A stretch of DNA of 64,000 nucleotides from Clostridia bacterium (GTDB lineage Bacteria > Bacillota > Clostridia > TANB77 > RGIG9151): positions 41,572 to 105,571 of the forward strand of contig JAFSUW010000029.1 of NCBI GenBank assembly GCA_017450465.1, given 5' to 3'. Within the stretch, counting starts at the first letter, position 1. Every line of letters starts with the position of its first letter. The notes below the pieces were generated by a model. That model was not told the origin of the DNA, searched no databases, and saw only the letters and a list, made by a program, of their open reading frames with translations. Both the position numbers and the translations under genes were made by a program. This document shows, one piece after another, positions 3,912 to 57,126 of the stretch.

Positions 3912-4760
3912 CTACAGAATAAAGTTACAAATTTCATCTATTATTTCTGGTGTTTGATAAGGTACTAAGCTTTCCTCACTACCCTTACCCATTTCTATAT
4001 AATCTTTTATTTTTGGTCCGTGATAATCACTGCCAAGTGTTATTCCTAAATCCTCTTTTTTAGCTATATCAAGCAAAAGTTCAACATCCTTTGGCGTGTG
4101 AAGACTATAATATACTTCAAGGCCTCTTAAACCATAACTTTTATAAAACTTTGTACGTCCTAAAATGTCTTTATAATCAGTAAGCCCAGATCTATATGGA
4201 TGTGCCCAAACAGGAATTCCACCTGCATCTATAATAAACTTTATGGCATCTTTTACAGATATCCTGCCTCGTTTCCTATCCTTCAATTCACCATTTATAA
4301 AATACCTTCTATATGCTTCACTCTCTTGTGTTTCATATCCATTTACTACAAGCCAATGAAGTATATGATATATTACAAACTTCTCCCCCGGAAAAAGCCT
4401 TTCCGTGTCCTCTCTTGTAACATTCATACCCTTTTTTTGAAAAAATTCAAATACAGCATTATCTTCTTCAAGGCCTACTTTTCTTACATATTTTTTATAA
4501 TCTTCAATTACACTTTTCGTACTATCTAGCTTATAGCCCAAAATATGTAGTTCTGTTTCATCAAAGGCCGTTACTTCTATCCCTGGTATTACAGTAACGC
4601 CTAGCATATTGCCAATACCAATCGCTTCTTCTGCAATACCAAGTGAATCGTGGTCTGTTAATGAAAGTACTGTTATACCCATATCTTTTGCTATTTCTAT
4701 ATTTTTTGCTGGCGAAAACTCACCATCAGAAAATATTGTATGCGTGTGTAAATCTATCAT
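3912..4760 (-). CDS. PHP-domain metal-dependent phosphoesterase
   Basis: MIDLHTHTIFSDGEFSP...LTDHDS, the PHP N-terminal signature. Confidence 0.8.
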   Translation of the reverse strand: MIDLHTHTIFSDGEFSPAKNIEIAKDMGITVLSLTDHDSLGIAEEAIGIGNMLGVTVIPGIEVTAFDETELHILGYKLDSTKSVIEDYKKYVRKVGLEEDNAVFEFFQKKGMNVTREDTERLFPGEKFVIYHILHWLVVNGYETQESEAYRRYFINGELKDRKRGRISVKDAIKFIIDAGGIPVWAHPYRSGLTDYKDILGRTKFYKSYGLRGLEVYYSLHTPKDVELLLDIAKKEDLGITLGSDYHGPKIKDYIEMGKGSEESLVPYQTPEIIDEICNFIL

Positions 4761-5878: not shown

Positions 5879-5906
5879 TCACGGGCAAACTTGTTTGCCC
5901 CTACAG
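5879..5906. repeat. GC-rich hairpin repeat (CTGTAGGGG family) between glyQS and the GT2 gene
   Basis: cacgggcaaacttgtttgcccctacag. Same signature as the hairpins at 9.7, 18.9, 24.5, 44.5, 58.5, 60.8, 61.8 and 62.9 kb. Confidence 0.6.
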
Positions 5907-7339: not shown

Positions 7340-8272
7340 TTAATTACCGCGTCTATCTTTTACATAAGAACTACCAGCTATACTTTTGGCAAGTTTTTTT
7401 ACTTCTGCTGCTATTTCTGCAACTTGTGCTGGACATATTAGGCGCCTTACTTCGTTCGTAACGCCTGCAACCGATATTGACATTATTGGGAACTGCTTTA
7501 CCGTTCCATCACGCCCTTTTGCAGTTATATAGCCATTTTTTCTATCATCTGGATTATAGAAATTTAATATATCCTTTGAAAATTCTTCAGCAATTTTGCT
7601 TCCCATGGCATCCATTCGCTCTGGTGAAGTAATAACAACAAAATCATCGCCACCGATATGACCTATAAAATCAGTATCACCGCCATAGTGCCCTACAACA
7701 TTGTTTAACACATCAGCAACTTTTTTTATTACTCTATCGCCATTTTCAAAACCATAAACATCATTATACGCTTTAAAGTTATCTAAATCACAATAAAGTA
7801 TCCCAAAAAGTTCTCCAGAATCTATGTTGTCACTTATTTGGCTTTGAATCTCTACATTGCCTGATAACCCAGTAAGTGGATTTACATCACGATTCCTTGA
7901 AACCCTTTTTAGCAAATTTATTGTCCTAAAATATAGTTCCTGCTCATTAAACGGATAATATAAATAATCATCAACACCCATCGACAAAAACTCTATTTTT
8001 TCGCCAATATCTGCATTATCATTTATAACAATAATAGGGAGCAAATCTTTAGTATAATCATTTCTAATCATCTTAACTAATTCAAATTCATCAAATATGC
8101 TTCTTTCAAGATTAACAATTAACAAGTCAACATTTTCATTATTAAGTTCAGCTGTGATATCACTTGTTAAAACCTTATTAACGACTTCATAAAATTCTTC
8201 TTTAAAAACTTCTTTTAAGTTATTAATTCTAACTACTGAATCCCCCGTAACAAGAATCCTTTTCTTCTTCAT
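7340..8272 (-). CDS. response-regulator-like protein with a degenerate GGDEF domain (GGDDF)
   Basis: N-terminal REC-like fold in which the usual phospho-acceptor Asp context reads LLIVNLE. C-terminal GGDEF-like domain has HIGGDDFVV in place of GGEEF. Start set at MKKKRILV, which has an RBS. Confidence 0.7.
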   Translation of the reverse strand: MKKKRILVTGDSVVRINNLKEVFKEEFYEVVNKVLTSDITAELNNENVDLLIVNLERSIFDEFELVKMIRNDYTKDLLPIIVINDNADIGEKIEFLSMGVDDYLYYPFNEQELYFRTINLLKRVSRNRDVNPLTGLSGNVEIQSQISDNIDSGELFGILYCDLDNFKAYNDVYGFENGDRVIKKVADVLNNVVGHYGGDTDFIGHIGGDDFVVITSPERMDAMGSKIAEEFSKDILNFYNPDDRKNGYITAKGRDGTVKQFPIMSISVAGVTNEVRRLICPAQVAEIAAEVKKLAKSIAGSSYVKDRRGN

Positions 8273-9698: not shown

Positions 9699-9767
9699 CT
9701 GTAGGGGCGATTATTAATCGCCCGCAATATACTATCATTTGTGATATGGGCGAATAATATTCGCCCA
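9699..9767. repeat. pair of GC-rich hairpins (CTGTAGGGG family)
   Basis: ctgtaggggcgattattaatcgcccg and tgggcgaataatattcgccca. Confidence 0.6.
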
Positions 9768-9844
9768 TACACTTTTGTGCATATTCCAACATACAACCAT
9801 TATTAAGCATTAATCTATCACATTTTGGCAAAAATTGCAAATTA

Positions 9845-13744: not shown

Positions 13745-14134
13745 GCAAATTATTGTTTGTCTTTCTCTTTAATAACCACGTGAACTAACCATTACGTTTG
13801 TTAACATTTCTTGCCAAAATAATTGGTGGCCGTTCGCACGATGCATCCTGCATCGATTCTCACTCAAAAAAACATCCAGTTTTTTTGACCACCAAAAACT
13901 ATTTTGGAGAAATGTTACAAACTTCATTTAATCGTTCGCTATGGTTATTAAAGGGATTAAACTAAAATCATAATTTTATATATTTAAACTTTATGTTTGT
14001 CAAAGATTTGATGTTTTGGCAAGGCAAACGAGCGAGAAAACCGGAAGCGTACGAGTTGTACGTTGAGGATTTTCGATGCGAAGTTTAACGTAGCCAAAAC
14101 GCAAATATTTGACAAACTCAGTGATAAACAATAA
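13745..14134. repeat. MITE-like element with nested inverted repeats, bounded by AAATTATTGTTT / AAACAATAATTT
   Basis: Perfect 12-bp terminal inverted repeats. Internal ~70-bp arms (ctttaataaccac... / ...ggttattaaag) pair with each other. A central core is shared with 44950-45085. Confidence 0.55.
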
Positions 14135-18837: not shown

Positions 18838-19014
18838 AGATAAATTATTGTTTATAGGGATGATGTAAATGTGTGTTGGTAAATTATCAAACTGTAGGGG
18901 CGAGTCTCCTGGCTCGCCCGTGTACAATGTTTGCGGGCGGGGGTGGAACCCCGCCCCTACAGAAATTTTAATATTTCATATTAAAATTTCTCCCCTACAA
19001 ACAATAATTTATCT
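18838..19014. mobile_element. MITE-like element (~177 bp) with 22-bp terminal inverted repeats
   Basis: AGATAAATTATTGTTTATAGGG ... CCCCTACAAACAATAATTTATCT. Inside are a CTGTAGGGGCG...CGCCCCTACAG double hairpin and an AT palindrome. Confidence 0.6.
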
Positions 19015-19028
19015 CTTCACAAAAAAAT

Positions 19029-19051
19029 AACGCTAACTAATAGTTAGCGTT
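19029..19051 (-). terminator. terminator downstream of rplL
   Basis: aacgctaactaatagttagcgtt followed by T-rich sequence. Confidence 0.6.
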
Positions 19052-19064
19052 ATTTTTATTTTAA

Positions 19065-24542: not shown

Positions 24543-24616
24543 GGTCGCTGTAGGCAGCGACCACTACAATAAAATAGCATTTTTCAAACTGTAGTGGCCG
24601 ATGCCCACATCGGCCA
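24543..24616. repeat. cluster of three GC-rich hairpins (CTGTAG family)
   Basis: ggtcgctgtaggcagcgacc, then ccactaca...tgtagtgg, then ggccgatgcccacatcggcc. Confidence 0.6.
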
Positions 24617-24658: not shown

Positions 24659-27600
24659 TTATTGCGCTTGTGTAAGATTTCTTAATACTGTTAAACTATC
24701 GCTTGGCGTTACTACTGTACTACCATTGTTATATGTTTGATAATAACTATCAATTAATGTAGTGTTATCTCCTGTACTCATTACCTCTAACGATGGTTTT
24801 GTTGGGTCTGTTGGAACCGGAATCGGTTCTTCAATAGTAGCACTTCCTAAATCAGTTAACTCTTTCTTTGCAGTATACTTTGCAACCAAAGTGGTTTCGT
24901 TACCGCATACATCAGTAGCTTTTATTGTTAATGTGTAACTACCTATTGTATTACCAATTTTAACTGTTACTGTCTTACCTGTTAGGTTAGCTCCAATGTT
25001 TACATTTACTAGATTACTTCCTGACATTTGATAAGAAAGTGCTTTTAAATGTCCTGTATCTTTAGCTATTATTTTAATACTTGCGCCAGTTTCTACTATA
25101 CTACCGCTTTCAGGAGATACGGTTATTGATGGTGGTGTTTTGTCATTAGTTTTGGCTTTAATTGTAAATGTCTTCGTAACGGATGTCTCCTCGCCATTTA
25201 CATTTTTAGCCGTTATCTTTAATGTTGCTTTTCCTTCATCTCTTGGTGCATACGTTGACTGTGTGAAACTTGCTGTGTTCTTTCCATCTATTGTTTTTAC
25301 AGTTCCATTATTCCACGAATAACTTAACGATGCTACGTTTACTTTATTATATGCACTTACATTTATTTTTACATTTGCTTCTGGATCGATTGTACCTCCA
25401 TCTGGTGTTACTGTTACTGTTGGAGGATTAACTGCTACAATTTCTTCCCATACTGCATATAATGTCATGTCTGAACTTATAGAAAGTTTTTCTCCATCCA
25501 CATATCTTACTGTTCCATTATTTGCATTTGTTTTAGTAGTTGCCCAACCTACAAAACTATATCCTGAACGTGTAAATTGGTTATTACTTAACACTTGTGC
25601 TACACCTGATCTAAAGGTTTGATTTGACATTGTGCCTGTTCCACCATTTGAATTAAATGTTATTGTGTAAGTTGCTATTTCTTGCTTACCATAACCGCAT
25701 TTTGTGCAAATTTCATTTTGTATAAAATGTCCCTCTTTTAAGGTAAATTTATCTAATTTACCACATTCACACTTGAAATCTAATTGATGCTCATTTGCAT
25801 CAACGGGCTTAACGTTGATTATAACGTATTTACATGTGTGTGGTAATTTTACGCTTGTGTTTGTTAAAGCTAATTTTAGTAAATAATAATCTGTAAGATC
25901 AATATAACCATTATTATCTACATCACCATATTTCATTTGAATATCTGTAAATCCAATTTCGTTATTTAAGAAACTTTCTAACCATGTTAAATCAGACGAA
26001 TTTACCACTCCATCCATATTAACATCGCCATAAATTTTCTTAACCTCACCACAGGCACATTTACCTGAAGAATATTTATGTGCTTCTGTTTCTTGATAGT
26101 TTATTTCACCACAATTACATGTATACACTATTATATGATTTTCATCACTATATCTTATTAATCCCTTATAATAACCAGATTTTGTACTACCTATACATAA
26201 GTGTGGTAAAATTGTGTTTTTACCACTTCTTAAAGAATATTTAAGAGTTACAAGATCCATTACATCTGTTTTACCATCACTAAATACATCAGCAGCTTTA
26301 GCATTCGCTAATGCAACTTTATTATTAATATAGTTACTAAATGCAATAATATCATCTTCATCTACTTTACCATTGCCATCTACATCACCATATAATACTG
26401 TTTGTTCTGTCGTATTTTTCTTAAATGATACGCTTATTTGATGATTCTTCATAACACCTTCAAAACGATATCCACCTTGGCTTTTATCACTATTAGGTGC
26501 TACAGGTGATACTTCCTTGCTATCTACTGTAAGTTTATCTAGTGTATAGCCATCATTTGCTTTATATGAAAATGTTTGTATTGCACCAGGAGCAACTTTT
26601 ATTTCTCCACTTGGAGTTATTGTACCATTTGCGCCTGCTTTTGCTGTAATTGTATACGTAGTTACTGTTCCTGATACTAAGTTATATGAACCTCCAATTT
26701 TTTGAGAAATTTGACCACAATTTACATATCCATAAAGTTCTATCTCACCAAGCCATGTATCTTTTGTTTCAATAGAAGTTTCTGCTGTATTTGTCCCTGG
26801 CTTAACTTCTTTTGTAACTAATACCCCATTATCAGATCTTAATTCTAAATAAATCTTTTCAATAGGTGCAGTTCCCATATTAGATGCACTAACCTTTATT
26901 GAACTTCCTGGGACTAAATTACCATTTGATGGATTTATATCTATTATTAAGTTATCAGACTTTTTAAATCCAACAATTATTTGGTGTTTTTCTAGAACAT
27001 TTTTAAATGTATATGTTCCTTGTCTTTCTCCACTATAGTTTGCTACTTCATTCCCATCTACTATAATTTTATCTATTACATATCCACTTTTTGCAGTAAC
27101 TGAAAAAGTTTGATCTGTACCTCTTTTAACTTTTACATCTCCGCTTGGTTCTATTGTACCATTTGAATCAGCCCTTGCTGTAATTACATATGAATCCGGT
27201 ACCTTTTGGAACACAGCACACGCTGATACTGTATTAGCAGGCATATTAAATACTAATTCACTACTATTTACACTATATATTTCTATGCCTTTTATATCTT
27301 TAAAACTTACAAATTCGTAACCTTTGCTAGGTACTGCATTAATTGTAACTGTGCTACCCGCTTCATAGTTACCATTACCTTTTACTTCACCACTACCTGA
27401 TTTTGTTACATTTACTTTATATGTAGGGATTTTAATAAACTTAGCTTTTAATGTTACCTTTACTTGTGGCATATTAAATGAAATTTGAGGATTATTTACT
27501 TCACTTACTGTAATACCTTTTACTGACGTCCATGAATCAAAAGTATATCCTGTATCAGGAGTTGCTTTAACTACTACTGCTGTACCTGGTGTAAATTTAC

Positions 27601-28186
27601 CACTGCCTTCAACAGTTCCTCCTTTTGTACCCGATGCTTTTACTTCAAACAATACATTTGACATATCTTTTTCGAAGTTGGCTTTCATTTTTACTTCATT
27701 TTTAGGCATCTTAAATGTAACTTGGCTACTTGTTACATCTATATTTACTCCAGTAACATCTGTCCAACCTGCAAATCTATAGCCACTATCTGCCATAGCC
27801 GTTACAAGTACTTGTGCATTTTCTTCATATTTACCAGCACCAGTTACTTTGCCTTTACCAGCTTTATTCACTTTTAAGCTATAAGTTGCTACTTTCACAA
27901 ATTTTGCCTTTAATGCTACTTTACTAGCAGGCATTGTGAATGTAACTTTATTACTCGTAGTATTAATGGTCACACCACTAACGTTAGTCCATTCACTAAA
28001 AGCATATCCACTTTTAGGAGTAGCTTCTACTGTTACTCTTGCTCCTTCCTCATATGTTCCTGCTCCTGTTACTGTCCCACTACCAGTTTTAGTTACCGCC
28101 ACTTTAAAGCCTGTAGCAGCAAAACTTAGCATCATTAATGACATAATAACAGTAATTGCCATTAATACAGCAATAATCTTTTTCAT
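24659..28186 (-). CDS. large secreted multidomain protein with InlB-B-like repeats, Ig-like domains, a Flg_new/Listeria-Bacteroides repeat and dockerin-type Ca-binding repeats
   Basis: Signal peptide. Repeats of GAGTYEEGARVTVEATPKSGYAFSEWT type, and dockerin-like YGDVDGNGKVDEDD / GDVNMDGVVNSSD. TFNSNGGTGT...GYSFVGWATT matches the Listeria-Bacteroides repeat. Confidence 0.8.
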   Translation of the reverse strand: MKKIIAVLMAITVIMSLMMLSFAATGFKVAVTKTGSGTVTGAGTYEEGARVTVEATPKSGYAFSEWTNVSGVTINTTSNKVTFTMPASKVALKAKFVKVATYSLKVNKAGKGKVTGAGKYEENAQVLVTAMADSGYRFAGWTDVTGVNIDVTSSQVTFKMPKNEVKMKANFEKDMSNVLFEVKASGTKGGTVEGSGKFTPGTAVVVKATPDTGYTFDSWTSVKGITVSEVNNPQISFNMPQVKVTLKAKFIKIPTYKVNVTKSGSGEVKGNGNYEAGSTVTINAVPSKGYEFVSFKDIKGIEIYSVNSSELVFNMPANTVSACAVFQKVPDSYVITARADSNGTIEPSGDVKVKRGTDQTFSVTAKSGYVIDKIIVDGNEVANYSGERQGTYTFKNVLEKHQIIVGFKKSDNLIIDINPSNGNLVPGSSIKVSASNMGTAPIEKIYLELRSDNGVLVTKEVKPGTNTAETSIETKDTWLGEIELYGYVNCGQISQKIGGSYNLVSGTVTTYTITAKAGANGTITPSGEIKVAPGAIQTFSYKANDGYTLDKLTVDSKEVSPVAPNSDKSQGGYRFEGVMKNHQISVSFKKNTTEQTVLYGDVDGNGKVDEDDIIAFSNYINNKVALANAKAADVFSDGKTDVMDLVTLKYSLRSGKNTILPHLCIGSTKSGYYKGLIRYSDENHIIVYTCNCGEINYQETEAHKYSSGKCACGEVKKIYGDVNMDGVVNSSDLTWLESFLNNEIGFTDIQMKYGDVDNNGYIDLTDYYLLKLALTNTSVKLPHTCKYVIINVKPVDANEHQLDFKCECGKLDKFTLKEGHFIQNEICTKCGYGKQEIATYTITFNSNGGTGTMSNQTFRSGVAQVLSNNQFTRSGYSFVGWATTKTNANNGTVRYVDGEKLSISSDMTLYAVWEEIVAVNPPTVTVTPDGGTIDPEANVKINVSAYNKVNVASLSYSWNNGTVKTIDGKNTASFTQSTYAPRDEGKATLKITAKNVNGEETSVTKTFTIKAKTNDKTPPSITVSPESGSIVETGASIKIIAKDTGHLKALSYQMSGSNLVNVNIGANLTGKTVTVKIGNTIGSYTLTIKATDVCGNETTLVAKYTAKKELTDLGSATIEEPIPVPTDPTKPSLEVMSTGDNTTLIDSYYQTYNNGSTVVTPSDSLTVLRNLTQAQ

Positions 28187-28337
28187 AAGTTTATCCTCCC
28201 TTTATTTCCCAAAAAAACATACTCCTATTCATTTATATTATCGCCTAAACAAATTATTTATGCAATGCGAATTAAAATGTTGTTTTATATAGAATATACC
28301 ATTATTTTTTCAATATTTTTACTGATTTATACACAAA

Positions 28338-28367
28338 AAAAGTAGACAAATTTGTCTACTTTTTTGT
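28338..28367 (-). terminator. terminator after the giant surface-protein gene
   Basis: aaaaaaagtagacaaatttgtctactttttt. Confidence 0.65.
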
Positions 28368-28398
28368 ATGAATAATTATAAGTGCTGAAGTATATTCT

Positions 28399-31300
28399 CT
28401 ATCTTGCTGTAACCTCATAGATAACTTTATCTGTAGTTACTCCACAAACACATGCACCATCTACAAAAGTATGAGTATGTGGCAATTCAGTTATTTTTCC
28501 TTCTGCATATGCTCTTATTATTATTGAATCTTCCTTTGTAACTTTTCCGTCACTATCTACGTCGCTATTTGCTGCAACATAATCCATGCTGAAACCTGAT
28601 AATACATTATAGAGTACAAGATTTGCATCATCTACTGTTACTATTCCATCACCATCAGCATCGCCTAGTATCTTAACGAATTTTAAGTATGGTAATGTTT
28701 CATAGTCACTCCATTTTGCTAAATGTCTAGATAATATTACATAATCTAAGTGATTTATCATACCATCTACATTTACATCAGCATTTACTGGATTAACTTG
28801 TTCTATATAACCTTCCCAGTCTTCTAAGGCTCTTATTAATATTACTCTATCTATTGCTGTTACTGTACCATCACTATTTACATCACCATATACAATTGGC
28901 TCTTCTATCATATATGTTATATTTTTTAATATCTTCTTGTTACCAGCTACATCTTTAGCTGTTACTGCTAATTTATGTACTCCTGGTTCTTTTGATATAT
29001 TAGTTGTCACTACAACCTTTGTTTTCCCTGTTACACTTGATACATTAACAATAGTACCTTCGTCCCATTGATATGTAATTTCATCAAGTTTACCAGCATC
29101 TGTTACTGTCATTGTTATTTTGCTTCCTGGTTCTACTATACTACCATGTTCTGGATTTAAGACTATTTCTGGTACTTCTCTATCAGAATTTATTGTATAT
29201 TTTACTGTTAATGTCCTTGAGTTTCCAGAAGTATCTTTTGCAATTATTTTTAGTGTATAGTTTCCATCAGCTGTTGGAGAGTCAAAACTTTTAGCAACTT
29301 CAGTTTTACCCTTTACATCACTAAATGATACTGTTTTTTCATTGTTCCACTGATATGTTAATGATGCTAAGCCAACATTATCAGTTGCTTTAATTGATAT
29401 TGCAACACCTGGTTTAATATTTGATAAAACTGGTGATATTACAGTTATTTCAGGTGACTCTGAATCAAGCTTACTCGTATCTAACACTTCAATATCTACT
29501 GTAAATATTCTACTATTTCCAGCCACATCTGTTGCTACTACTTTAAGTACATGATTTCCATCAGTAGTAGGGGCAGCAAATGTTGTAGTTATAGTTTCTT
29601 TATTAGCTACGCCAGGAACAGATTTAGCAGTACCGTTATCCCATTGATATGTTAATGTATTAAGCATTTTATTATCAGTTGCCTTTATAGTAACATTTGT
29701 GCTTGGCTCTACTGGACCTTTTTTAGGGCTTACTAATACAATTTCTGGTGCTTCTCCATCAATCTTATCTGCATCTAACACTTCATATTCAGTAGTTACT
29801 GTCTTAGCATTTCCTGCAATATCTTTTACTATTAATTTTAATGCATGTTTTCCATTAGCAGTAGGAGCATTAAATGTTGCAGTTACAGTTTCTTTGTTGC
29901 TTACATTTGCTATAGCTACTGCTTTTTCATTATCCCATTGATATGTTAGTGTACTAATTCCAATATTATCAGTTGCTTTTACAGTAATTACTGTATTTGG
30001 CACTATTGGATTTGTTGTTGGGCTTACTATTTCTATTTCTGGTGGAACTTGATCTTGTTTATCCTTACCTAGTACATTATATTCAGCTGTTACAGATCTA
30101 TCATTTCCGCCTAAGTCTGTTGCTAATAGTTTCAGTACATAATTTCCCTCAACTGATGGGGCAGGGAATTTTACAAGTGATGTTAATTTACCATTTACTG
30201 CCATAATAGTTTCAGTTTGACCATTACCCCATTGATATGTGAATGTATTAAGTCCCTTGTCATCAGACACATTTACTTCAAATATCGTACCTGGTTCTAT
30301 TGGATTTGATCTTGGGCTTATTATTTCAACATCTGGTGCTATTGAATCTGTATTTGAGAAAAATTTCTCTCTTAATGTCTTACTTTCACCAAATACTGTT
30401 TCACCTGTAATCAATTCAACAACATCCCAAGTAGGTATATCTAATGTTCTAAACATTAATATTACGAAATTATCCCATGTTAATTTATCTGTTCCATGGT
30501 CAAATAAACTAGCTGTTAATTGTAGCTTTGCAGCCTCTTGTGCATAATTTCCTGGCCATGTGCCTTGTTTTTCAACATATTGGCCTCTACCTGTTATCCT
30601 TATTAAATAAGTTATTGCTTCATTGAATGTAACTTTAGTGGTTGGCTTAAATGTACCATCTTCATAAGCACTCATTATGCCATTTTCCACTGCTAATTCT
30701 ATCCAACCAGCATTCTTGTTACTCTTAATATCTGACATTGTTATGTAATTTTTAGCAACATTCGCTTCTTCCTCAGTAATTCCATACATTTTGCAGATAT
30801 ATTTTGCAAATTCTGCTCTCGTTATAGTAGCTGTTACCTTCTTTGATTCAGATGTACTTACTATACCTAAATCTATCAAATCTTTTAATGAAAACTCATA
30901 GTACTCATTCAAGTCATCACTTAATACATCATAACCAAATTCCTTCATTGCCACATTACCATAAATATCTGTAGCAGTAATGGTTACACCCAAATGTCCT
31001 GTTTTATTCAATACAACATTTACTTGAGCTTTCTTTCTACTATCTGTATAAGTTGATTTTACTGGGTTCTCATTATTTACTTGATATGTTAATTCTTTTA
31101 ATCCACTATCATCTGTTACAGTAAATGCTATAACAGTATTCATTTCTACATCAGAATTATGTTGCATATTTGTAGTAATTACTGGAGCAACCTTCTCTGT
31201 TGGAGGTGGTGTTGTACCATTATCTACTATATACTCAGTTACTAATGTTCTACTATTTCCAGCTAAATCTTCTGCTACTACTTTTAATGCATGAATTCCA

Positions 31301-34300
31301 GTACTACTTGGAGCAGACACAGTGTCTACGATTTCAGTCATTCCTTTTGCATAAGCAAATGTTGAAGAAGGATATGCCTCATCATCCCAATAACATTTAA
31401 CTGTTTCAAGTCCTATGTTGTCAGTTACTTTTACTTCTATATCTGCTCTTGGTTTTATAGGATTTGTCTGACTTACAGTAATTTCTGGTGGTTCTTGTTC
31501 TAATTTGCTTTCATCTACTACTTCATAAGTTACTGTTAACGTTCGACTATTACCCGCCAAATCTGTTGCTACTATTTTTAATGTATGAGTTCCTTCAGTA
31601 CTTGGACCATCCAATGTATATGGTGCTAATCCCTTCAAGCCCTTTACATCAGGTATTGATTTAACCGTACCATTATTCCATTGATATGTAACCGTATCAA
31701 GACCTTGATCTTCATCTACATTCAAATGAATTTTTTCTTTTAGTTTTATTGGGCTTGTTGCTGGAATTACATTTATTTCTGGTGGTGTTATATCATCATT
31801 ATCTGGTTCTGCTGCACTTCCGCCATTACCTACTTCATATGTAATCGTACGTTCAGTTTTATTACCTTTTTTATCTGTAGCAGTTACGCTAACTTTATAT
31901 GTCCCTTCAAGCTTTAATACAAGTTGATTATCCGAAACTTCTTTTGAATATATTACACCACTTGTTCTGCCTTTATCCACTGTTCCTGTACCCATTGCAG
32001 GTTGTCTATTCCAATGCTCTTCTGATGCAACCGTTCCAAAGCCATAGCCTAACCCTTCTGGTGGTGTTACAGAAATCATTATTGAGCCCATTGCTGTCTC
32101 ATCTGTAGCTTTTACAGTTACTTTTGTGCCAACTGGAACTTTACCACCATCTGGAGACGCAGTAATTACTGGGCCTTTATTATCTAGCACATTAAATTTA
32201 CCAGTAAGTGTTGTCTGATTCATTGACATATCTACTACTGTTACAGTTAACTTATGCTCCCCATCTTCAAAAGGTGCCGCAATTAATGCTGTAGTTTTAG
32301 CTACATTAGAAAGGTTCTTTACAGTTTCTATATAGCCATCATCATCCCAGTTGTAAGTTACTTCTTTTATATTATTTGCATCACTTACATTTACTTCTAT
32401 ATTTGATAATGGGAATATTGTACTACCTGTTTTGGTTACTAATTTTGCAGTTGGCTTTGTGTTATCATTTTTATCTACAGCAACCAAATATTTATATGTT
32501 TTACTTGTATTCTTTCCATTAATATCTGTTACACTTATTACAAGGGTTCTTTCAGCTGAATAGTTAGAAGTCTCTGCAAAACCTGTTATTTTCTTAGGTG
32601 TGCCTTCTGCTTCTTGCTCTGCTGCAATGAAACTACCAGCTAACCATACTGCCTTATAACTCTTTATTCCAACATCTGAAGTTATTGTATAATTAATTTT
32701 TTCATTATAACCAACTTTTGAACCATCTTTTGGTTCAACCAAAATCACTGGTTCATTTGACTTAACTTTTTCATTAATTATATAAGTTTCTGTCTTTGTC
32801 CCAGTTGCTGCCTTTACAGTTACTTCTAAAGTATATTCAGCATCTTGTGAAGGTATATTTATTGTAGCTGTTTCTTTTTGAACACCTGGAAATCTACCAG
32901 GAATTTGTCCAGCCGCACCTGACATTCCACCAAATAAACTCCAACTTATACCACTTAAGTATTTACTATCAGTTACTGTCATTGTTAGTGTTTGACCTGG
33001 TTTTACTGTTTTTATATCTGGACTAAATGTTATTGTTATTCCAGCACCTGCCGCACTCACTTCACCACAAACACATACATTATCAATGAATTCGTGTTCT
33101 ACATGTGGTAATGTTGTTCTACCTTCTATATATGCATTAATAAGATTTGAATCAAGTCTTGATAAATTTCCATCAAGGTCTACATCTGCATTTGCAAATT
33201 TAACTATACTATAGTTATTAGAATCTATTGCACCTATTATTAAACTTGCATCATATGTTGTAATTTCACCATCACCATTTGAATCACCATATAAGATTTC
33301 TCCATCTGGCTGTGCAGCCCATGGTGTTTCGCCTTCTTCACTAATTAATTCTTGATATTTAGTTTCTGTTACAAAAATACCTTTTACTGTTACATTTTTA
33401 CCAGGTAATACAAGTGTTAATACACTATCTTTTTGATTCATTAAACCTAATTCTGGTACTTCCCAATGATAGAACACATATCCATTATTTGGTGTAGCAG
33501 TAAATATTAATGTATCGCCTTCCTGAAATTTCTTGTTCCCTTCTACAACTATACTACCTTTCCCTTCTCTTTGAAGAGTTAATTTATATGTAGGAACTTT
33601 TTCGAAAGTTGCCTTTACTTTAGCATTACTCATAGGCATTATAACTGTTGCTTCTGCTGAATTTGGATTATCAATTACCATTCCTTCTGTTGACCATCCA
33701 GTAAATTTGTATCCAGTTTTTGGTGTTGCTGTTATTTGAACAACACTATTTGGATAATATTTACCAGTACCTGTAACTGTTCCACTTCCAACTTTACCAA
33801 CTGTTAATTTATATAACACTTTTGTTGGATCTTTTATGAAGTTAGCTTTCATGCTTACTGCTGTGGCTGGCATTGAAAAAGATATTTCATCTAGTGTAGG
33901 AACTTCTATACCTTTTACATTTGTCCATCCGTTAAAAACATATCCGTCATTTGGGATTGCTTTTACAGTAACAAAATCTCCTTCTTGATACTTACCTGCT
34001 CCACTTACTGTTCCACCTGATGTTTTTGAAACTGAAACTTTGTAAGTAGCAATTTTAGTAAATTTTGCTTTCAGACTTACCTTCTCTCCTGGCATTCTGA
34101 ATGAAACTTGTGAACTAGTTGTATCTATGCTTACGCCAGATACATTAATCCATCCTGTAAAAATATATCCGTCCTTGGGAGTTGCTGTTACAACAACTTG
34201 AGCTCCTTCCTGGTATGTACCTGCACCTGTTACTGTTCCGCTTCCTGTTTTCCCTACGGAAACCTTAAAGCCAGTAGCCGCTGTTGCTGGTACCATAAGT

Positions 34301-34347
34301 TGCAAAATCATTGTCATTGCAACCACTAATGAAATTATTCTTTTCAT
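28399..34347 (-). CDS. giant secreted multidomain protein (1982 aa from MKRIISL): InlB-B-like repeats, dockerin modules, tandem Ig-like repeats, SLH-like domain, C-terminal double dockerin
   Basis: Signal peptide after the MKRIISLVVAM start, which has a GGAGG RBS. At least six ~95-aa tandem repeats with the pattern P.I....P....I.V.ATDN.GL..LTYQW.N......AGN. An SLH-like TRAEFAKYICKMYG segment. Dockerin repeats YGDVNSDGTVTAIDRVIL and LGDADGDGIVTVDD. A C-terminal LPHTHTFVDGACVCG motif. Confidence 0.8.
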   Translation of the reverse strand: MKRIISLVVAMTMILQLMVPATAATGFKVSVGKTGSGTVTGAGTYQEGAQVVVTATPKDGYIFTGWINVSGVSIDTTSSQVSFRMPGEKVSLKAKFTKIATYKVSVSKTSGGTVSGAGKYQEGDFVTVKAIPNDGYVFNGWTNVKGIEVPTLDEISFSMPATAVSMKANFIKDPTKVLYKLTVGKVGSGTVTGTGKYYPNSVVQITATPKTGYKFTGWSTEGMVIDNPNSAEATVIMPMSNAKVKATFEKVPTYKLTLQREGKGSIVVEGNKKFQEGDTLIFTATPNNGYVFYHWEVPELGLMNQKDSVLTLVLPGKNVTVKGIFVTETKYQELISEEGETPWAAQPDGEILYGDSNGDGEITTYDASLIIGAIDSNNYSIVKFANADVDLDGNLSRLDSNLINAYIEGRTTLPHVEHEFIDNVCVCGEVSAAGAGITITFSPDIKTVKPGQTLTMTVTDSKYLSGISWSLFGGMSGAAGQIPGRFPGVQKETATINIPSQDAEYTLEVTVKAATGTKTETYIINEKVKSNEPVILVEPKDGSKVGYNEKINYTITSDVGIKSYKAVWLAGSFIAAEQEAEGTPKKITGFAETSNYSAERTLVISVTDINGKNTSKTYKYLVAVDKNDNTKPTAKLVTKTGSTIFPLSNIEVNVSDANNIKEVTYNWDDDGYIETVKNLSNVAKTTALIAAPFEDGEHKLTVTVVDMSMNQTTLTGKFNVLDNKGPVITASPDGGKVPVGTKVTVKATDETAMGSIMISVTPPEGLGYGFGTVASEEHWNRQPAMGTGTVDKGRTSGVIYSKEVSDNQLVLKLEGTYKVSVTATDKKGNKTERTITYEVGNGGSAAEPDNDDITPPEINVIPATSPIKLKEKIHLNVDEDQGLDTVTYQWNNGTVKSIPDVKGLKGLAPYTLDGPSTEGTHTLKIVATDLAGNSRTLTVTYEVVDESKLEQEPPEITVSQTNPIKPRADIEVKVTDNIGLETVKCYWDDEAYPSSTFAYAKGMTEIVDTVSAPSSTGIHALKVVAEDLAGNSRTLVTEYIVDNGTTPPPTEKVAPVITTNMQHNSDVEMNTVIAFTVTDDSGLKELTYQVNNENPVKSTYTDSRKKAQVNVVLNKTGHLGVTITATDIYGNVAMKEFGYDVLSDDLNEYYEFSLKDLIDLGIVSTSESKKVTATITRAEFAKYICKMYGITEEEANVAKNYITMSDIKSNKNAGWIELAVENGIMSAYEDGTFKPTTKVTFNEAITYLIRITGRGQYVEKQGTWPGNYAQEAAKLQLTASLFDHGTDKLTWDNFVILMFRTLDIPTWDVVELITGETVFGESKTLREKFFSNTDSIAPDVEIISPRSNPIEPGTIFEVNVSDDKGLNTFTYQWGNGQTETIMAVNGKLTSLVKFPAPSVEGNYVLKLLATDLGGNDRSVTAEYNVLGKDKQDQVPPEIEIVSPTTNPIVPNTVITVKATDNIGISTLTYQWDNEKAVAIANVSNKETVTATFNAPTANGKHALKLIVKDIAGNAKTVTTEYEVLDADKIDGEAPEIVLVSPKKGPVEPSTNVTIKATDNKMLNTLTYQWDNGTAKSVPGVANKETITTTFAAPTTDGNHVLKVVATDVAGNSRIFTVDIEVLDTSKLDSESPEITVISPVLSNIKPGVAISIKATDNVGLASLTYQWNNEKTVSFSDVKGKTEVAKSFDSPTADGNYTLKIIAKDTSGNSRTLTVKYTINSDREVPEIVLNPEHGSIVEPGSKITMTVTDAGKLDEITYQWDEGTIVNVSSVTGKTKVVVTTNISKEPGVHKLAVTAKDVAGNKKILKNITYMIEEPIVYGDVNSDGTVTAIDRVILIRALEDWEGYIEQVNPVNADVNVDGMINHLDYVILSRHLAKWSDYETLPYLKFVKILGDADGDGIVTVDDANLVLYNVLSGFSMDYVAANSDVDSDGKVTKEDSIIIRAYAEGKITELPHTHTFVDGACVCGVTTDKVIYEVTAR

Positions 34348-34497
34348 TATACTGCCTCCTTTGTTTTTTCTACGTCTACTATATCGTAACAAATTATATT
34401 TTTTATGCAAATTAATAAAATGTTGAAAATACTATTAAAATGCTATTCTCGTTCAATATGTGAACTAAAAAGTTAAAATTTTTATTAAAAAATTTTT

Positions 34498-34533: not shown

Positions 34534-34610
34534 TGGCGTGCCTGAGACGATTCGAACGTCCGGCCAACGGCTTAGAAGGCCGTTGCTCTATCCTGCTGAG
34601 CTACAGGCAC
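34534..34610 (-). tRNA. tRNA-Arg (anticodon TCT), CCA encoded
   Basis: Reverse complement reads GTGCCTGTAGCTCAGCAGGATAGAGCAACGGCCTTCTAAGCCGTTGGCCGGACGTTCGAATCGTCTCAGGCACGCCA. Cloverleaf with the TPsiC motif GTTCGAATC. Anticodon loop is CTTCTAA. Confidence 0.9.
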
Positions 34611-34627
34611 ATAACTCTTGCCTAAAT

Positions 34628-34656
34628 ATAATACAACAGATTTAAGCAAAAATCAA
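34628..34656 (-). promoter_or_regulatory. candidate sigma-A promoter for tRNA-Arg
   Basis: On the minus strand, TTGATT-17 nt-TATTAT, about 17 nt upstream of the mature tRNA 5' end. Confidence 0.4.
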
Positions 34657-34945
34657 GTACTTTTTAGTTTATTTGAGAAATTGTTGCTTAGTTGAGTAAT
34701 TTCGGCGAAAGAAGGGACGGGGGTAAATGACACAAACAGGTTCAGTTAGCCCCGTCCCACCTCCCGCATTTCCGCCTTTGGCGGATAATGCGAGTGGCGA
34801 ACACACCTCGGAAATCACTCGCCATAAGTTCGAATAGCAAAATCAAAGATTTTGATTCTCACTTATGTTCGCCGCTACAAGTTTGCGAATAACTCTAACT
34901 TTAAATTCTCTCATGTAAACAATAATTTATCTTTCCTCCTATTAT

Positions 34946-35239
34946 TTAGCCACCTATCCCTTTATATAAATTATATACATTCTTATAACCAAGTTCTACA
35001 AGGCGTTCCCCTGCGGCTAAACTCCTTACACCCTTTGCACAATATACAACTATTTTGTTTTCCTTATTTGGTACAATTCTTAAAATTTCATCAACGTTTG
35101 ATATATTTAGGTTAATTGCACCTTTTAACCTATTTTCACGAAATTCTTCTTTGTCCCTAAAATCAAATACATATAAGTTTCCTTCCTTTATTAATTCTTT
35201 TAACTTTTTTATATCTATATTTGTTAACATTTTATACAC
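34946..35239 (-). CDS. rhodanese-domain protein (single-domain sulfurtransferase)
   Basis: 97 aa. The CAKGVRS active-site Cys loop is typical of rhodanese. Confidence 0.8.
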   Translation of the reverse strand: MYKMLTNIDIKKLKELIKEGNLYVFDFRDKEEFRENRLKGAINLNISNVDEILRIVPNKENKIVVYCAKGVRSLAAGERLVELGYKNVYNLYKGIGG

Positions 35240-35301
35240 CTTTTTTCTTCATATATTATTATATGAAAAAAACAAGCTACCGATACACTCGGTAGCTTTA
35301 T

Positions 35302-35469
35302 TTACATCATATCTACTACATCATTCATCACTTTTGTAGCTTTTTTTATCGCATGTTTACTTGGCTTTAACACACTGTCTTTCATCCATTTGCTATTTGT
35401 CTTACTTATCATGCCAACTGTTGTGCCAACTATGCTTCCAATAACCATGCCACGCGTAAAATTATTCAT
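35302..35469 (-). CDS. small hypothetical protein (55 aa), not in the ORF track
   Basis: Manual translation gives MNNFTRGMVIGSIVGTTVGMISKTNSKWMKDSVLKPSKHAIKKATKVMNDVVDMM. RBS is GAGGTGAGG. Confidence 0.4.
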   Translation of the reverse strand: MNNFTRGMVIGSIVGTTVGMISKTNSKWMKDSVLKPSKHAIKKATKVMNDVVDMM

Positions 35470-35525
35470 TTGCCTCACCTCATGTATTTATTTTTTCAAA
35501 ACACACAAAATAAATACATAGAAAA

Positions 35526-37412
35526 TTAATCTGTAAGACTTCCAAATAATTCATCAAATTTCGCTTCAAGTTGCTTTTGAATATCTAAGTCTTCTAAATC
35601 ATCCTTTTCAAGACCGTTTTCAACATTTACCGAACCAACTGTTCCTTTGCCTATTTCATAAGGATTAATTATCCTAAATTCTTTTCTATGATTTAAGCTT
35701 GGGTCATTATGGCTCATTTTATACATTTGACGCTCTTTGTCTTTTGGATGCATACTTACATCGTATTTTTTAGCTTTTATAGGACGCATACCTTTAACCA
35801 TTACGATACTCGTATCAAGTGGCAAACGTTTTAACTCATCAATTGTCATAAGTACTCTTCCCATTGACTGATCAGATATGCTCTGTGACATTTGTCCTGA
35901 ACTGGTTCCAAATATACCGCCTAACTGGCCACTTACTGAATTTTGTTTCTTGGTTATTGTTGCCTCTCCTAAGCTTTTTGATATATACTCACAAGTTTTT
36001 ACTGCTTGGCTACCCAAAAATAGATGCGTATCGCAGTTTGCCATGATGTTTTCGTAAATATCTTTATACATATCCATTAATTGGTCAATACTCTGTAAAA
36101 CTATGCTAATGTTTATATTTCTACTTCTACTTGTACTTAATTTTTGGTTAAAATCAGGAATTTGTCCTGTATTTGCGAACTCATCTAGGAGGAAGAATAC
36201 TGGTATATCAAGCCGTCCTCCATTTTGGTCTGCCATGAAATATAATCTTTGAAGCACCTGCCCAAAAAACATGGTAGGCAAGAAGTTAAATGCACTATGG
36301 CTATCTGGGGTTATAACGAATGTTGCCATTTTCTTTTGCCCCATAGCATCTATATCTATTGAACTACTACCTGTTATAGCAGATATTTCCGGTGTATCAA
36401 AAACGTTTAGCCTTGTAGCAAGTCCTACTAAAACTCCGGCCCTTGTCTTATCTACAGCTAATCTAAACGTTTCATAACTCTTTCTTGCCATACATTCGAA
36501 AGGAAGACGCATAAAGATGTCATCCATCCAGTCAAAATCCTGTCCTGCTCTTACCATAGCAAGGCAGCTTGCAAGCGATTGTTCTTCCTTTGGTGCTTCT
36601 TGTAATAAATAATATATACATGAGTTAAGTAAAGCACGCTCTGCTTGTGGCCAGAATGGGTCTTCGTTTGTTGAACCCTTACTTGTATTTTTTATTAATG
36701 CATCACTTACGATATCTACATCGAGAGTTCCACCAATATGATGTAGAGGGTTATATGAATCACTACAGCTTGGATTTACTAAGTTTATGCAACGAACTTC
36801 ATAGCCATTTTCTTTTAAGAAACCTGCTGCAGTATCAAAGTTTTCACCTTTTGGGTCGGTTACGATATATGAGCCAAGCATTTGAAGCATATTAGGCATA
36901 ATGTAACCTCTTGATTTCCTAGAACCAGCACCACCTATGATTAATACATTTTTATTTATAAATTTATTATCTACTGTTAAATAATTTTTTTGTGCAAGTA
37001 TTATACCTGTATTTGGATTTAATATTTCGTATTGGTCACCATTTGCCCATCCGCTTGAACCATGTTCAATATTTTCATACTCGCCGGTAAAGAACCTAAG
37101 TTTTATTTCATAAGCACCAAAAATAATTAAACAAAAAATTGTAATTGGTGTTACACTACTTAAAAAACCGTGTTGAGCATCTGAGTTATTAATATATTTA
37201 GTAAACGTAAGAGGATTTAAGTTTTTAAAAAAATTAGGCGCAAAAAGAACAGCATCTACAGACGAAATGCTGCTATCTTTTTCTTTTTTATACTGTTCCC
37301 ATTGTGCTTTGGTGGCACCATAAGCACCACCTAAGAACGTTAGGAGTAATAAAAAAACTATTCCATAAAATATATATCTTTGTTTTCTTTTTTTAAGAAT
37401 ATTTAATCCCAT
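35526..37412 (-). CDS. TraG/VirD4-family type IV secretion coupling protein homolog with a degenerate Walker A
   Basis: N-terminal transmembrane segments. GGAGSRKSRGYIMPNML lines up with the VirD4 Walker A/PNLL region but lacks the canonical GxxxxGK[ST]. The FFLLDEFANTGQIP Walker B region is typical of TraG/VirD4. Confidence 0.7.
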   Translation of the reverse strand: MGLNILKKRKQRYIFYGIVFLLLLTFLGGAYGATKAQWEQYKKEKDSSISSVDAVLFAPNFFKNLNPLTFTKYINNSDAQHGFLSSVTPITIFCLIIFGAYEIKLRFFTGEYENIEHGSSGWANGDQYEILNPNTGIILAQKNYLTVDNKFINKNVLIIGGAGSRKSRGYIMPNMLQMLGSYIVTDPKGENFDTAAGFLKENGYEVRCINLVNPSCSDSYNPLHHIGGTLDVDIVSDALIKNTSKGSTNEDPFWPQAERALLNSCIYYLLQEAPKEEQSLASCLAMVRAGQDFDWMDDIFMRLPFECMARKSYETFRLAVDKTRAGVLVGLATRLNVFDTPEISAITGSSSIDIDAMGQKKMATFVITPDSHSAFNFLPTMFFGQVLQRLYFMADQNGGRLDIPVFFLLDEFANTGQIPDFNQKLSTSRSRNINISIVLQSIDQLMDMYKDIYENIMANCDTHLFLGSQAVKTCEYISKSLGEATITKKQNSVSGQLGGIFGTSSGQMSQSISDQSMGRVLMTIDELKRLPLDTSIVMVKGMRPIKAKKYDVSMHPKDKERQMYKMSHNDPSLNHRKEFRIINPYEIGKGTVGSVNVENGLEKDDLEDLDIQKQLEAKFDELFGSLTD

Positions 37413-41199: not shown

Positions 41200-42804
41200 A
41201 TGGCTTTTGATGGATTAGTTACTCGTAGCGTCGTAAATGAACTAAATAACACTATATTAAACTGCAAAATAGATAAGGTGCATCAACCAAATAAGGATGA
41301 TGTTATTTTTGTTATCCGCAGTTTTAATAAGAACTTAAAACTTATCTTATCAAGCAACGCTACACTTTCGAGGGCTCATTTAACTAACATGGTCTATGAA
41401 AATCCTGAAAAGCCATTTAACTTTTGCATGGTTTTAAGAAAACATTTAAGCGGTGCTAAAATCACTAAAATTGAGCAAATTTCTAATGACCGTATTATAA
41501 AATTCACATTTGAAAACAGTAACGAGTTAGGCGATAGAGAAACCAAAGTTTTAATTGTCGAAATAATGGGTAAATATAGCAACATAATACTACTTACCGA
41601 AAATCTTACCATCATAGATAGCATAAAACACGTCGATTTTGAAACAAGTAGTGTTCGTGAAGTTATGCCTGGTAGAAAGTATGAACTTCCTCTTACCGAC
41701 GGCAAGAAAAATCCTTTTATCGAGCAAGAAAACTCAAACTCCATAATTGCAAGTGATATTACAAAGAATTATTTAGGGATATCTACACTATTTGCAAAAG
41801 AAATTGAAAACAATAAGCTTAACCTGTTCGATGAAATAGTTAAACCTATATCACCTTGCATTTTAATGAAAAATGGTGAATTTATTGATTTTTATATATA
41901 CCATATTCATGAGTATGCAGTAAAAGATTTTGATTCTATCTCGGAAACTATAGATACATATTTCACTAACAAAATCTCGCAAGATGGCCTTAAATCAAAG
42001 AAAAATGAGTTACTTAGCATCGTTTCTTCTAGTTACACCAAAAATGAAAAGAAACTAAAAATAGTCATGGATAAATTAAAAACTACTGAAGATATGGAAA
42101 ACTTACGAGTATACGGCGAACTTCTTACTGCAAATCTATATAAAATAACTGAAAATGCTAGTGAAATAACTGTATTTAACTATTATACCAACGAAGATAT
42201 CACTATTCCACTTGATATAAACTTATCTCCAGCAGGAAATCAGAAGAAAATATTTAAGAAATATACCAAACTAAAAAACACTTATACGGCTTGTACTTCG
42301 CAAAAAGAAGAAATCGAATTAGAATTAAACTATCTTGAAAGCATATTTTTTGAAATAGATTCTGCAGAATCCGTTGATGAACTTTACGACATACGTTTAG
42401 AACTAATAAATAGTGGCTTCATAAAAACCACTAAAAAAGCTCAAAAAATCGAGCCATCGAAACCTATCAAGCTTATTTATAAAGATTTTACAATATATGT
42501 TGGCAAAAATAACATCCAAAACGACTACTTAACCTTCGATGTCGCACGTAAAACTGATATATGGTTACACGCCAAAAACATTCCTGGTTCACACACTATA
42601 ATAAAAACAGACAATCGTGACGTGCCTGATGATGTAATCTTGTATGCTGCAAGTTTTGCCGCAAAACATAGTAAAGCAAAAAATTCACCAAAGGTTGATA
42701 TTGACTATACAGAAGTCAAAAACGTAAAAAAAATACCAGGTGCAAAACCCGGTATGGTTATCTATAATAATTTCAAAACCGTTTATGTAGAGCCCGCACT
42801 ATAA
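41200..42804 (+). CDS. rqcH: NFACT-family ribosome quality control protein (fibronectin-binding protein A homolog)
   Basis: MAFDGLVTRSVVNELNN...KIDKVHQPNKDDVIF N-terminal NFACT-N domain. C-terminal NFACT-R region with PGSHTIIK. Confidence 0.85.
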   Translation: MAFDGLVTRSVVNELNNTILNCKIDKVHQPNKDDVIFVIRSFNKNLKLILSSNATLSRAHLTNMVYENPEKPFNFCMVLRKHLSGAKITKIEQISNDRIIKFTFENSNELGDRETKVLIVEIMGKYSNIILLTENLTIIDSIKHVDFETSSVREVMPGRKYELPLTDGKKNPFIEQENSNSIIASDITKNYLGISTLFAKEIENNKLNLFDEIVKPISPCILMKNGEFIDFYIYHIHEYAVKDFDSISETIDTYFTNKISQDGLKSKKNELLSIVSSSYTKNEKKLKIVMDKLKTTEDMENLRVYGELLTANLYKITENASEITVFNYYTNEDITIPLDINLSPAGNQKKIFKKYTKLKNTYTACTSQKEEIELELNYLESIFFEIDSAESVDELYDIRLELINSGFIKTTKKAQKIEPSKPIKLIYKDFTIYVGKNNIQNDYLTFDVARKTDIWLHAKNIPGSHTIIKTDNRDVPDDVILYAASFAAKHSKAKNSPKVDIDYTEVKNVKKIPGAKPGMVIYNNFKTVYVEPAL

Positions 42805-44494: not shown

Positions 44495-44520
44495 GGACGG
44501 GCAAGGACACCCGCCCCTAC
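44495..44520. repeat. GC-rich hairpin (CCGCCCCTACA family, inverted orientation)
   Basis: ctacggacgggcaaggacacccgcccctacaaa. Confidence 0.5.
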
Positions 44521-44523
44521 AAA

Positions 44524-52584: not shown

Positions 52585-52678
52585 GATTAATTCCTCCTTA
52601 TTTTTCTACCGTCTTGTCATTCCATGATCTTAAAGCTTTAAACATCCATAATAATGTCTTAAATCCTTTTCAAAAACA

Positions 52679-52705
52679 TTATCGTATTTTAGCGAAAATA
52701 CTTTA
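52679..52705 (-). promoter_or_regulatory. candidate sigma-D promoter for flagellin 51424..52584
   Basis: On the minus strand, TAAA-N15-TACGATAA. Confidence 0.4.
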
Positions 52706-52838
52706 TAGTTTTTTTAAACTTTTTTTGGTTTTTTAAAAAAAATATAGTGCATTTCCGCATAAACAGGGGGTTTTAATATTATTAATTTTTTTATTAAAAT
52801 ATTAACCCGCCTGTTTATACTTAAAAAGCACCATATAA

Positions 52839-54143: not shown

Positions 54144-54147
54144 TTTA

Positions 54148-57112: not shown

Positions 57113-57126
57113 ATACGACCTACTTA

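Follow-up and report, generated by a model that had tools for sequence, protein, structure and literature searches.

GTAG-tagged hairpins between the genes of an AT-rich, uncultured Clostridia bacterium are probably repetitive extragenic palindromes of a known type

What are the compact GC-rich hairpins that lie scattered between the genes of an AT-rich Clostridia genome: transcription terminators, RNA elements of the host, or members of a mobile repeat family? We address this question in a 64,000-nucleotide stretch of contig JAFSUW010000029.1 from a Clostridia bacterium, referred to as the window. An original prediction, made from the letters alone, had described hairpins at nine loci as resembling repetitive extragenic palindromic (REP) elements and bacterial interspersed mosaic elements (BIMEs), and as possible substrates of a REP-associated tyrosine transposase (RAYT). 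To our knowledge, work on REPs and their RAYT partners has dealt almost exclusively with Proteobacteria. The resemblance is supported by the anatomy of the units and by the presence of the same hairpins at Y1_Tnp/RAYT genes in other genomes. We conclude with good confidence that the hairpins are REP elements of the GTAG-tagged superfamily, matching the type tied to TnpA_REP subclass 2.4, which corresponds to RAYT group 4 of Bertels et al. 2017. They represent a known REP class in an AT-rich uncultured host.

All nine loci are present, displaced by a few bases at most, and they resolve into 12 GC-rich hairpin units of 24–34 nt with unrelated flanks (Table 1). Each unit consists of a (C/T)TGTAG tag abutting the 5′ side of a stem, with GTAG intact in 11 of 12 units and replaced by GTAT in U3. 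Stems comprise 5–10 bp with a GC-rich foot, which reads GGGCG/CGCCC in eight units and GG(T/C)CG or GGCG in U6, U7, U10, and U11. The terminal motif originally proposed for all copies thus stands as a common tag and stem foot, but not as one invariant string. Loops span 2–6 nt by alignment and up to 8 nt when only perfect pairs are counted. Doublets, expected to be frequent, occur at only three of the nine loci, as inverted dimers of 71–74 bp: two with the tags outward and one with the tags inward. U10, U12, and in part U9 take a double-foot form. Relative to the genes, U1, U8, and U9 carry a sense tag and U11 an antisense one, and each dimer holds one unit of either orientation; asymmetric single units number only four. 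No longer direct-repeat family joins the loci.

Table 1. Hairpin units of the window and further hairpins of uncertain membership (positions are those of the window)
Feature	Position	Strand of tag	Tag and stem	Context
U1, single unit	5883–5906	−	CTGTAG + GGGCAAAC/GTTTGCCC	17 nt 3′ of the stop of a class-II tRNA-synthetase-like gene, just upstream of the ribosome-binding site of a GT2 glycosyltransferase gene
U2 + U3, inverted dimer, tags outward, 74 bp	9699–9772 (U2 9699–9723; U3 9748–9772)	U2 +; U3 −	U3 tag GTAT	DUF255/rsmB intergenic region
U4 + U5, inverted dimer, tags outward, 71 bp	18892–18962 (U4 18892–18919; U5 18935–18962)	U4 +; U5 −		Downstream of the rplL terminator
U6 + U7, inverted dimer, tags inward, 73 bp	24543–24615 (U6 24543–24569; U7 24589–24615)	U6 −; U7 +		42 nt 3′ of the stop of a 1175-aa dockerin protein
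U8, single unit	44495–44522	−	One G-T pair in stem	1–2 nt past the yhbY stop, 24 nt ahead of bacA/uppP
U9, partial double foot	58504–58532	−		1 nt past a flagellin stop codon
U10, double-foot form	60795–60828	Palindromic	GTAGT...ACTAC	48 nt past a flagellin stop
U11, tag overlaps stem	61812–61836	+	GTAGGCGAAG/CTTCGCCT	About 12 nt past a flagellin stop
U12, double-foot form	62892–62923	Palindromic	TGTAGGGGGCGA...TCGCCCTCTACA, lengthened by flanking AAATGTT/AACATTT pairing	13 nt past a flagellin stop
Possible decayed member (membership uncertain)	18957–19000	−	TTGTAGGG + 14-bp AT-rich hairpin; z = −4.6	Abuts U5
Possible AT-drifted double-foot member (membership uncertain)	59685–59740		TGTAG + 14-bp AT-rich stem + ATACA	12 nt past a flagellin stop
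Possible degenerate member (membership uncertain)	57091–57116	−	GTAT + GGGGCTCA/TGAGCC	Past a flagellin stop
Possible degenerate member (membership uncertain)	42787–42814	+	GTAG + AGCCCGCAC/GTGCTGGCT (one mismatch), then TTTATT	Converging 3′ ends of an NFACT-family gene (41200–42804, +) and folD (42799–43635, −)

Tag and hairpin co-occur far more often than in shuffled sequence. In a test that required a tag 0–2 nt 5′ of a GC-footed, perfectly paired stem of 6 bp or more, GTAG gave 12 matches versus 0.08 ± 0.31 in 100 dinucleotide shuffles. Among the 256 tetranucleotides in tag position GTAG ranked second; only AAAA was commoner, and it is the mirror image of terminator T-runs. Searched across the window with at most one mismatch, TGTAGGGGCG gave 10 matches versus 0.61 expected, and 0 of 100 shuffles reached 10. 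Coding overlap is zero for all units in a window of which at least 84.5% is coding. Most units lie 1–50 nt past a stop codon, and at eight of the nine loci no more than 50 nt separates the hairpin from the upstream stop or the terminator behind that stop.

Predicted RNA folding energies range from −11 to −22 kcal/mol in single units; dimers reach −32 to −42 kcal/mol, and z-scores lie between −3 and −8 (U4/U5 dimer, −42.3 kcal/mol and z = −6.0; U10, z = −8.2). As had been predicted, the ordinary terminators of the window are AT-rich stems with T-runs (for example 19023–19057, after rplL), and the units usually lack such a run: None follows U1 or U8–U12, and a gene-strand terminator scan of 54000–64000, across the flagellin array, found no terminator-like site. 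The U2/U3 composite is the sole unit trailed by a U-rich run; its fold places both hairpins inside an outer 7-bp stem, and the run follows 12–16 nt from the hairpins. In Rfam, no family overlapped a hairpin body, whether at gathering thresholds or with the cutoff relaxed to E ≤ 1, and the single contact was a chance-level mir-1677 match at 62826–62898 (E about 0.5, 26 bits versus 84) that touches the first 7 nt of U12.

Copies are not confined to the window. The sequence read for the host organism amounts to ~72 kb, made up of the window and the next 7.8 kb of the same contig, and a 13th copy lies in that extension; extrapolated from this density, a whole genome would hold hundreds. A relative, L269, carries another copy. 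We aligned the 13 same-species units with this L269 unit. Stem positions 1–5 are conserved, and positions 6–8 hold 35 Watson–Crick and two G-T pairs, of three to four pair types, with zero mismatches; the G-T pairs belong to U8 and the L269 unit and are sense-strand pairs. The hairpin is thus preserved, with an upper stem and loop that vary freely.

Comparison with the nearest relatives (L269, L270, and L271; 65–67% RsmB identity, 29–30% GC, shared gene order) shows that orthologous intergenic regions differ in occupancy. All three lack U1 between the tRNA-synthetase and GT2 genes, and all three lack the U2/U3 dimer between DUF255 and rsmB, where they carry an AT-rich hairpin with a T-run. Conversely, L269 has a unit of its own, ATGTAGGGGCGAGCTTAGCTCGTCC followed by TTGATTTTTT, in the CorC/RluB intergenic region, which in the window is a 10-bp spacer. 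These differences indicate turnover of units. Because the relatives have a terminator at the DUF255/rsmB site and a U-rich run follows the composite fold, the U2/U3 dimer may have replaced a terminator. At this level of identity the orthologous intergenic regions have diverged beyond base-by-base alignment, and no target site can be inferred from them. Within the species, the U4/U5 dimer is identical in eight metagenome contigs.

One same-species metagenome contig, 1 kb long (L007), is 99.5% identical through rplL and the U4/U5 dimer. From about its position 645 (window 18842), ~50 nt past the dimer, it switches to unrelated sequence with a phosphopentomutase-like gene on the other strand, replacing the LRR and Gp49/HTH genes. 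The junction is either a strain rearrangement beside the dimer or an assembly chimera.

The same architecture is widespread in other genomes. We scanned species-representative genomes with the 20.5-base dimer pattern TGTAGGGGCG-N(42-62)-CGCCCCTACAR. Dimers of the form TGTAGGGGCG...CGCCCCTACA gave at least 120 matches in more than 10 phyla; the host genome was not among the matches listed. Those listed include Acidobacteriota, Chloroflexota, Planctomycetota, Armatimonadota, Cyanobacteria, delta- and gamma-proteobacteria, Bdellovibrionales, Bacteroidota, Parcubacteria, and Kiritimatiellales. Firmicutes account for 42 of the 120 listed, several of them rumen metagenome-assembled genomes (MAGs), and include Oscillospiraceae, Ruminococcus, Eubacteriales, Christensenella, Bulleidia, Anaerosolibacter, and Anaerotruncus.

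RAYT genes stand beside such hairpins. In a Chloroflexia genome (L187), a RAYT with the Pfam Y1_Tnp domain has GTAG-GGGCGTGAT hairpins on both sides, and in a metagenome contig of 30% GC (L319) a RAYT is flanked by GTAG-GGGTCGGCG hairpins. In an Oscillospiraceae MAG (L172), a dimer lies 3.4 kb from a gene named "REP element-mobilizing transposase RayT" by JGI (Joint Genome Institute). A profile of this Firmicutes-rich RAYT clade found at least 7956 homologues, and many of them carry annotations as Oscillospiraceae or Clostridia transposases. Members of the clade also carry hairpins within the gene: In-frame internal pairs occur in L172, L258, L260, L272, L274, L321, and L334. In five clade genes the pair is an inverted GTAG hairpin pair of 26–28 nt, 85–100% complementary and 128–164 nt apart; the hairpin differs from gene to gene and matches inside each gene. 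Those of L321 (34% GC) and L334 (28% GC) have the GGGCG foot of the window's units.

The in-gene pairs are inverted and straddle the histidine–hydrophobic–histidine (HUH) motif of the enzyme (L172, 5486–5509/5651–5674; L260, 4968–4994/5123–5149; also L258, L272, L274, L321, and L281). Their arms co-vary per gene and encode peptide pairs such as VGDGFPVP/GTGNPSPT. We considered these pairs as a novelty and rejected the idea, since in-frame REPs within subclass 2.4 genes were already reported by Quentin et al. 2018 (PMC6006769); the paired, co-varying arrangement may deserve a closer look. In a delta-proteobacterial MAG (L140, 7436–7998), a RAYT-like gene is split into two overlapping open reading frame (ORF) pieces exactly at a GTAG-GGGGCGGGG dimer (7709–7777), which reflects either insertion of a REP dimer into the gene or a nanopore frameshift.

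Viral contigs contain similar hairpins. The single-unit pattern CTGTAGGGGCG-N(4-24)-CGCCCG gave at least 120 matches there, and nearly all of those listed are extended hairpins whose inner stem varies between contigs. Around the 120 listed, the only recurrent neighbor genes were those of one related phage-contig family with one conserved locus. In a family of related viral contigs (L092, L104, L035, and about 20 other IMG/VR contigs; 57–60% GC, many from sample 3300045988), one intergenic site immediately 5′ of a ribosome-binding site retains a CTGTAGGGGCGGACGGCTCTGTCCGCCCG unit; REP-like hairpins therefore reside also in phage or prophage genomes. Another IMG/VR contig (L017, 32% GC) holds two tandem head-to-tail copies of GTAGGGGCGAACAGTGTTCGCCCGCAAT around 4679–4708, with a GCAAT tail in common with U2.

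The assignment to REP elements follows from the published definition, with which GTAG at the 5′ foot, the GC-rich basal stem, the extragenic sites, the inverted dimers, and the double-foot forms agree. Several observations weigh against it. A RAYT gene, which the original prediction had suggested seeking, is absent from the window ORFs in phmmer and jackhmmer searches with E. coli RayT and the RAYTs found here and in a Pfam search of 31 ORFs, and none lies in the ~72 kb read. The seemingly low-GC homologues P0121, P0131, P0093, and P0072, considered as the host's own RAYT, were rejected as belonging to other organisms of 39–46% GC; RAYTs in metagenome contigs of 28–34% GC were likewise set aside, since they could not be tied to the host species. 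Several loops, at 4–8 nt, exceed the 2–5 nt of the strict short-REP descriptor. The 13 same-species copies all have different hairpins, which gives no indication of recent bursts or recent transposition and could also reflect in-place selection on structure. Finally, the units are identical across all same-species contigs, with no strain-level insertion polymorphism.

Among the rival explanations, the likeliest is that the hairpins are host RNA elements that arose and evolve in place: 3′ stabilizers or attenuators without a U-tract, in which CUGUAG is read by an RNA-binding protein or RNase and no transposase takes part. Such elements would explain why most units sit so close behind stop codons, why every copy has its own, perfectly compensated upper stem, and why the G-T pairs of U8 and the L269 unit fall on the sense strand; they would also suit the missing canonical terminators behind the flagellin genes and the position of U2/U3 at the site of the relatives' terminator hairpin. 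Against this, the tag occurs on either strand relative to transcription (U11 and one unit of each dimer are antisense), tag and foot recur in more than 10 phyla, flanking or within RAYT genes, and the occupancy of orthologous intergenic regions is unequal among relatives. We regard an origin of this kind as unlikely; as an account more of function than of origin, it is also compatible with REP identity.

A considerably weaker candidate is a different mobile element, of which the units would be remnants or ends: IS200/IS605 insertion sequences with their subterminal hairpins, or a miniature inverted-repeat transposable element of another transposase family. IS200/IS605 ends likewise combine a guide with a hairpin read by Y1 transposases, and a gene for a type IV secretion system (T4SS) coupling protein and a tRNA-Arg gene show past mobile DNA in the window. 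None of the units, though, is bordered by a tnpA or tnpB gene or embedded in a longer conserved element; the units are short, their flanks are unrelated, no longer direct-repeat family connects the loci, and GTAG with this foot is the REP signature, unlike known IS608 and ISDra2 ends. We consider this very improbable. We give least credence of all, hardly any, to ordinary intrinsic terminators or chance GC-rich palindromes. The location downstream of genes, the U-rich run after the U2/U3 composite fold, and the TTGATTTTTT that follows the L269 unit are what such an explanation can draw on. Against it stand the empty gene-strand scan of the flagellin array, the absence of T-runs after U1 and U8–U12, the AT-rich stems with T-runs that the organism uses as real terminators, and the excess of tagged hairpins over the shuffled expectation; far from every copy being a canonical U-tract terminator, most have no U-tract.

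If the hairpins are REP elements, their working can be outlined by analogy. The unit is a GTAG guide tetranucleotide, usually after CT or TT, abutting a hairpin whose first 3–5 pairs are conserved and whose upper stem and loop are variable. It occurs as single copies, in double-foot form (GTAG...CTAC), or as 71–74 bp inverted dimers comparable to BIMEs or to REPINs (REP doublets forming hairpins). E. coli TnpA_REP requires both GTAG and the hairpin, acts on single-stranded DNA only, and cleaves at C|T (Ton-Hoang 2012, PMC3333891). By the same logic, an HUH/Y1 enzyme encoded elsewhere in the genome may bind the folded hairpin and GTAG on single-stranded DNA and may cut at C|T sites, among them CC|TAC in an inverted partner. 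Such cleavage could lead to excision, insertion, and rearrangement, and through these to the spread and turnover of units in intergenic DNA. Where transcribed, the GC-rich hairpins would be expected to fold, within an AT-rich transcriptome, into 3′ RNA structures of very high stability, which could protect upstream mRNA or attenuate read-through. In enterobacteria, transcribed REPs stabilize upstream mRNA or attenuate read-through, and REPs very near stop codons can disturb translation termination.

In the window, the units are the only strong structures behind several flagellin paralogues. Together with the unique, compensated upper stems and the dimer at the relatives' terminator site, this leaves room for a further reading, to which we attach rather low confidence: In this AT-rich Clostridia lineage the units may have ceased to be an active transposon population and become host-maintained structural modules. 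Selection would then act on them as mRNA 3′-end or read-through control elements without a U-tract.

The host is a Clostridia bacterium whose same-species contigs come from ruminant-gut metagenomes. The GC content of the window is about 32% (30–35% throughout), a slight amendment of the about 30% first given. Almost all genes lie on the minus strand; they include giant dockerin/S-layer homology (SLH) proteins, the secE-nusG-rplKAJL cluster with an L10 leader, sporulation genes, and eleven flagellin genes. The flagellin tandem array (51424–63770, −) comprises three genes of 368–386 aa and eight of 274–277 aa, and also holds a 146-aa C-terminal fragment at 58017–58457; a tag-bearing hairpin lies 3′ of six of the eight short paralogues. 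Two secreted proteins of very large size (1175 and 2003 aa), encoded at 24659–34410 (−), combine InlB B-repeat, Ig-like, PKD, SLH, and dockerin domains. In the region 34534–37412, the tRNA-Arg(TCT) gene is succeeded within 1 kb by the T4SS coupling protein gene (TraG/VirD4-like, 35526–37412) and by short GC-rich patches at 34748–35017; the region looks like the edge of an integrated conjugative element. A TwoAYGGAY RNA (RF01731) match at 13789–13929 (−) is full length, scores 44.3 bits against a gathering score of 43 (E = 7e-4), and surfaced only under more permissive filters; it sits in a 511-nt intergenic region upstream of a CNNM/CorC gene.

These findings leave the current understanding of REPs unchanged: The kind of element is well known, and the host is little studied. 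The window and the scans show that gut and rumen Clostridia, even those of about 30% GC, commonly carry a REP type with GTAG and a GGGCG foot; in such genomes the units form GC islands. This TGTAG- and GGGCG-footed REP/RAYT system may be among the most widespread REP types of gut and rumen Firmicutes. If it has been overlooked, the reason would be that repeat finders based on k-mer frequency are blind to copies with variable stems. The copies can be heterogeneous enough to escape word-frequency searches. In the literature, a 2013 survey of GTAG repeats (PMC3733652) lists no Firmicutes, and the core REPIN/RAYT papers found in this analysis do not contain the word; one of them, Bertels 2017, records group 1 RAYTs in Clostridia. 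The placement of units could shape operon polarity and mRNA stability, and recognizing them during MAG annotation avoids miscalling them as terminators, small RNAs, or spurious ORFs. An AT-rich host might also allow RNA-level and DNA-level constraints on REPs to be separated.

Set beside known systems, the units share with Rho-independent terminators a GC-containing hairpin downstream of genes, but differ in having no adjacent U-tract, a conserved 5′ tag, both orientations, and inverted dimers. The REP/BIME elements of E. coli with their RayT (TnpA_REP, PDB 4ER8) are closer, being extragenic palindromes with 5′ GTAG, arranged in inverted pairs (BIMEs) and placed 3′ of operon genes; they are longer, however, require a mismatch in the stem, and sort into a few classes of near-identical sequence (Y, Z1, and Z2), whereas the window stems are short, perfect, and all different. 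Searches with E. coli RayT also give only weak matches to the RAYTs found here (E = 5e-5 to 4e-3). In Pseudomonas, the P. putida REP head CTGTAGGAGCG is similar. Pseudomonas REPINs (Bertels & Rainey 2011) likewise join two inverted REPs into a composite hairpin of 70–110 bp that is dispersed intergenically. They differ in their large populations, in which near-identical 16-mers cluster around a master sequence; each window unit has an upper stem of its own, and a k-mer frequency search would therefore miss them.

The closest parallels lie in the wider GTAG-tagged superfamily. The stem-loops surveyed by Di Nocera et al. 2013 (PMC3733652) are GTAG-tagged, occur downstream of ORFs, form head-to-head and tail-to-tail dimers, and show complementary stem variants and G-T pairs. 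Quentin et al. 2018 (PMC6006769) define a REP as GT[AG]G situated 0–2 nt 5′ of a GC-footed hairpin. The GTAG-REP descriptor asks for at least three G/C in the first four bases, a stem of at least seven pairs, and a loop of 2–5 nt, or alternatively a bulged long form. REPs of subclass 2.4 have a three-G:C foot, double-foot forms, and in-frame insertion within the tnpA_REP gene (Quentin 2018, PMC6006769). The window units resemble them in the GT[AG]G tag at the foot, the three consecutive G:C foot pairs, and the GTAG...CTAC double-foot variants, and the RAYT clade beside the same hairpins in other genomes carries in-frame REPs in its genes. By these shared features, not by phylogeny, that clade fits best in subclass 2.4. 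The subclass has been reported to abound in Cyanobacteria and Bacteroidetes, with scattered occurrences in other groups; here its counterpart appears in a Clostridia MAG of 32% GC.

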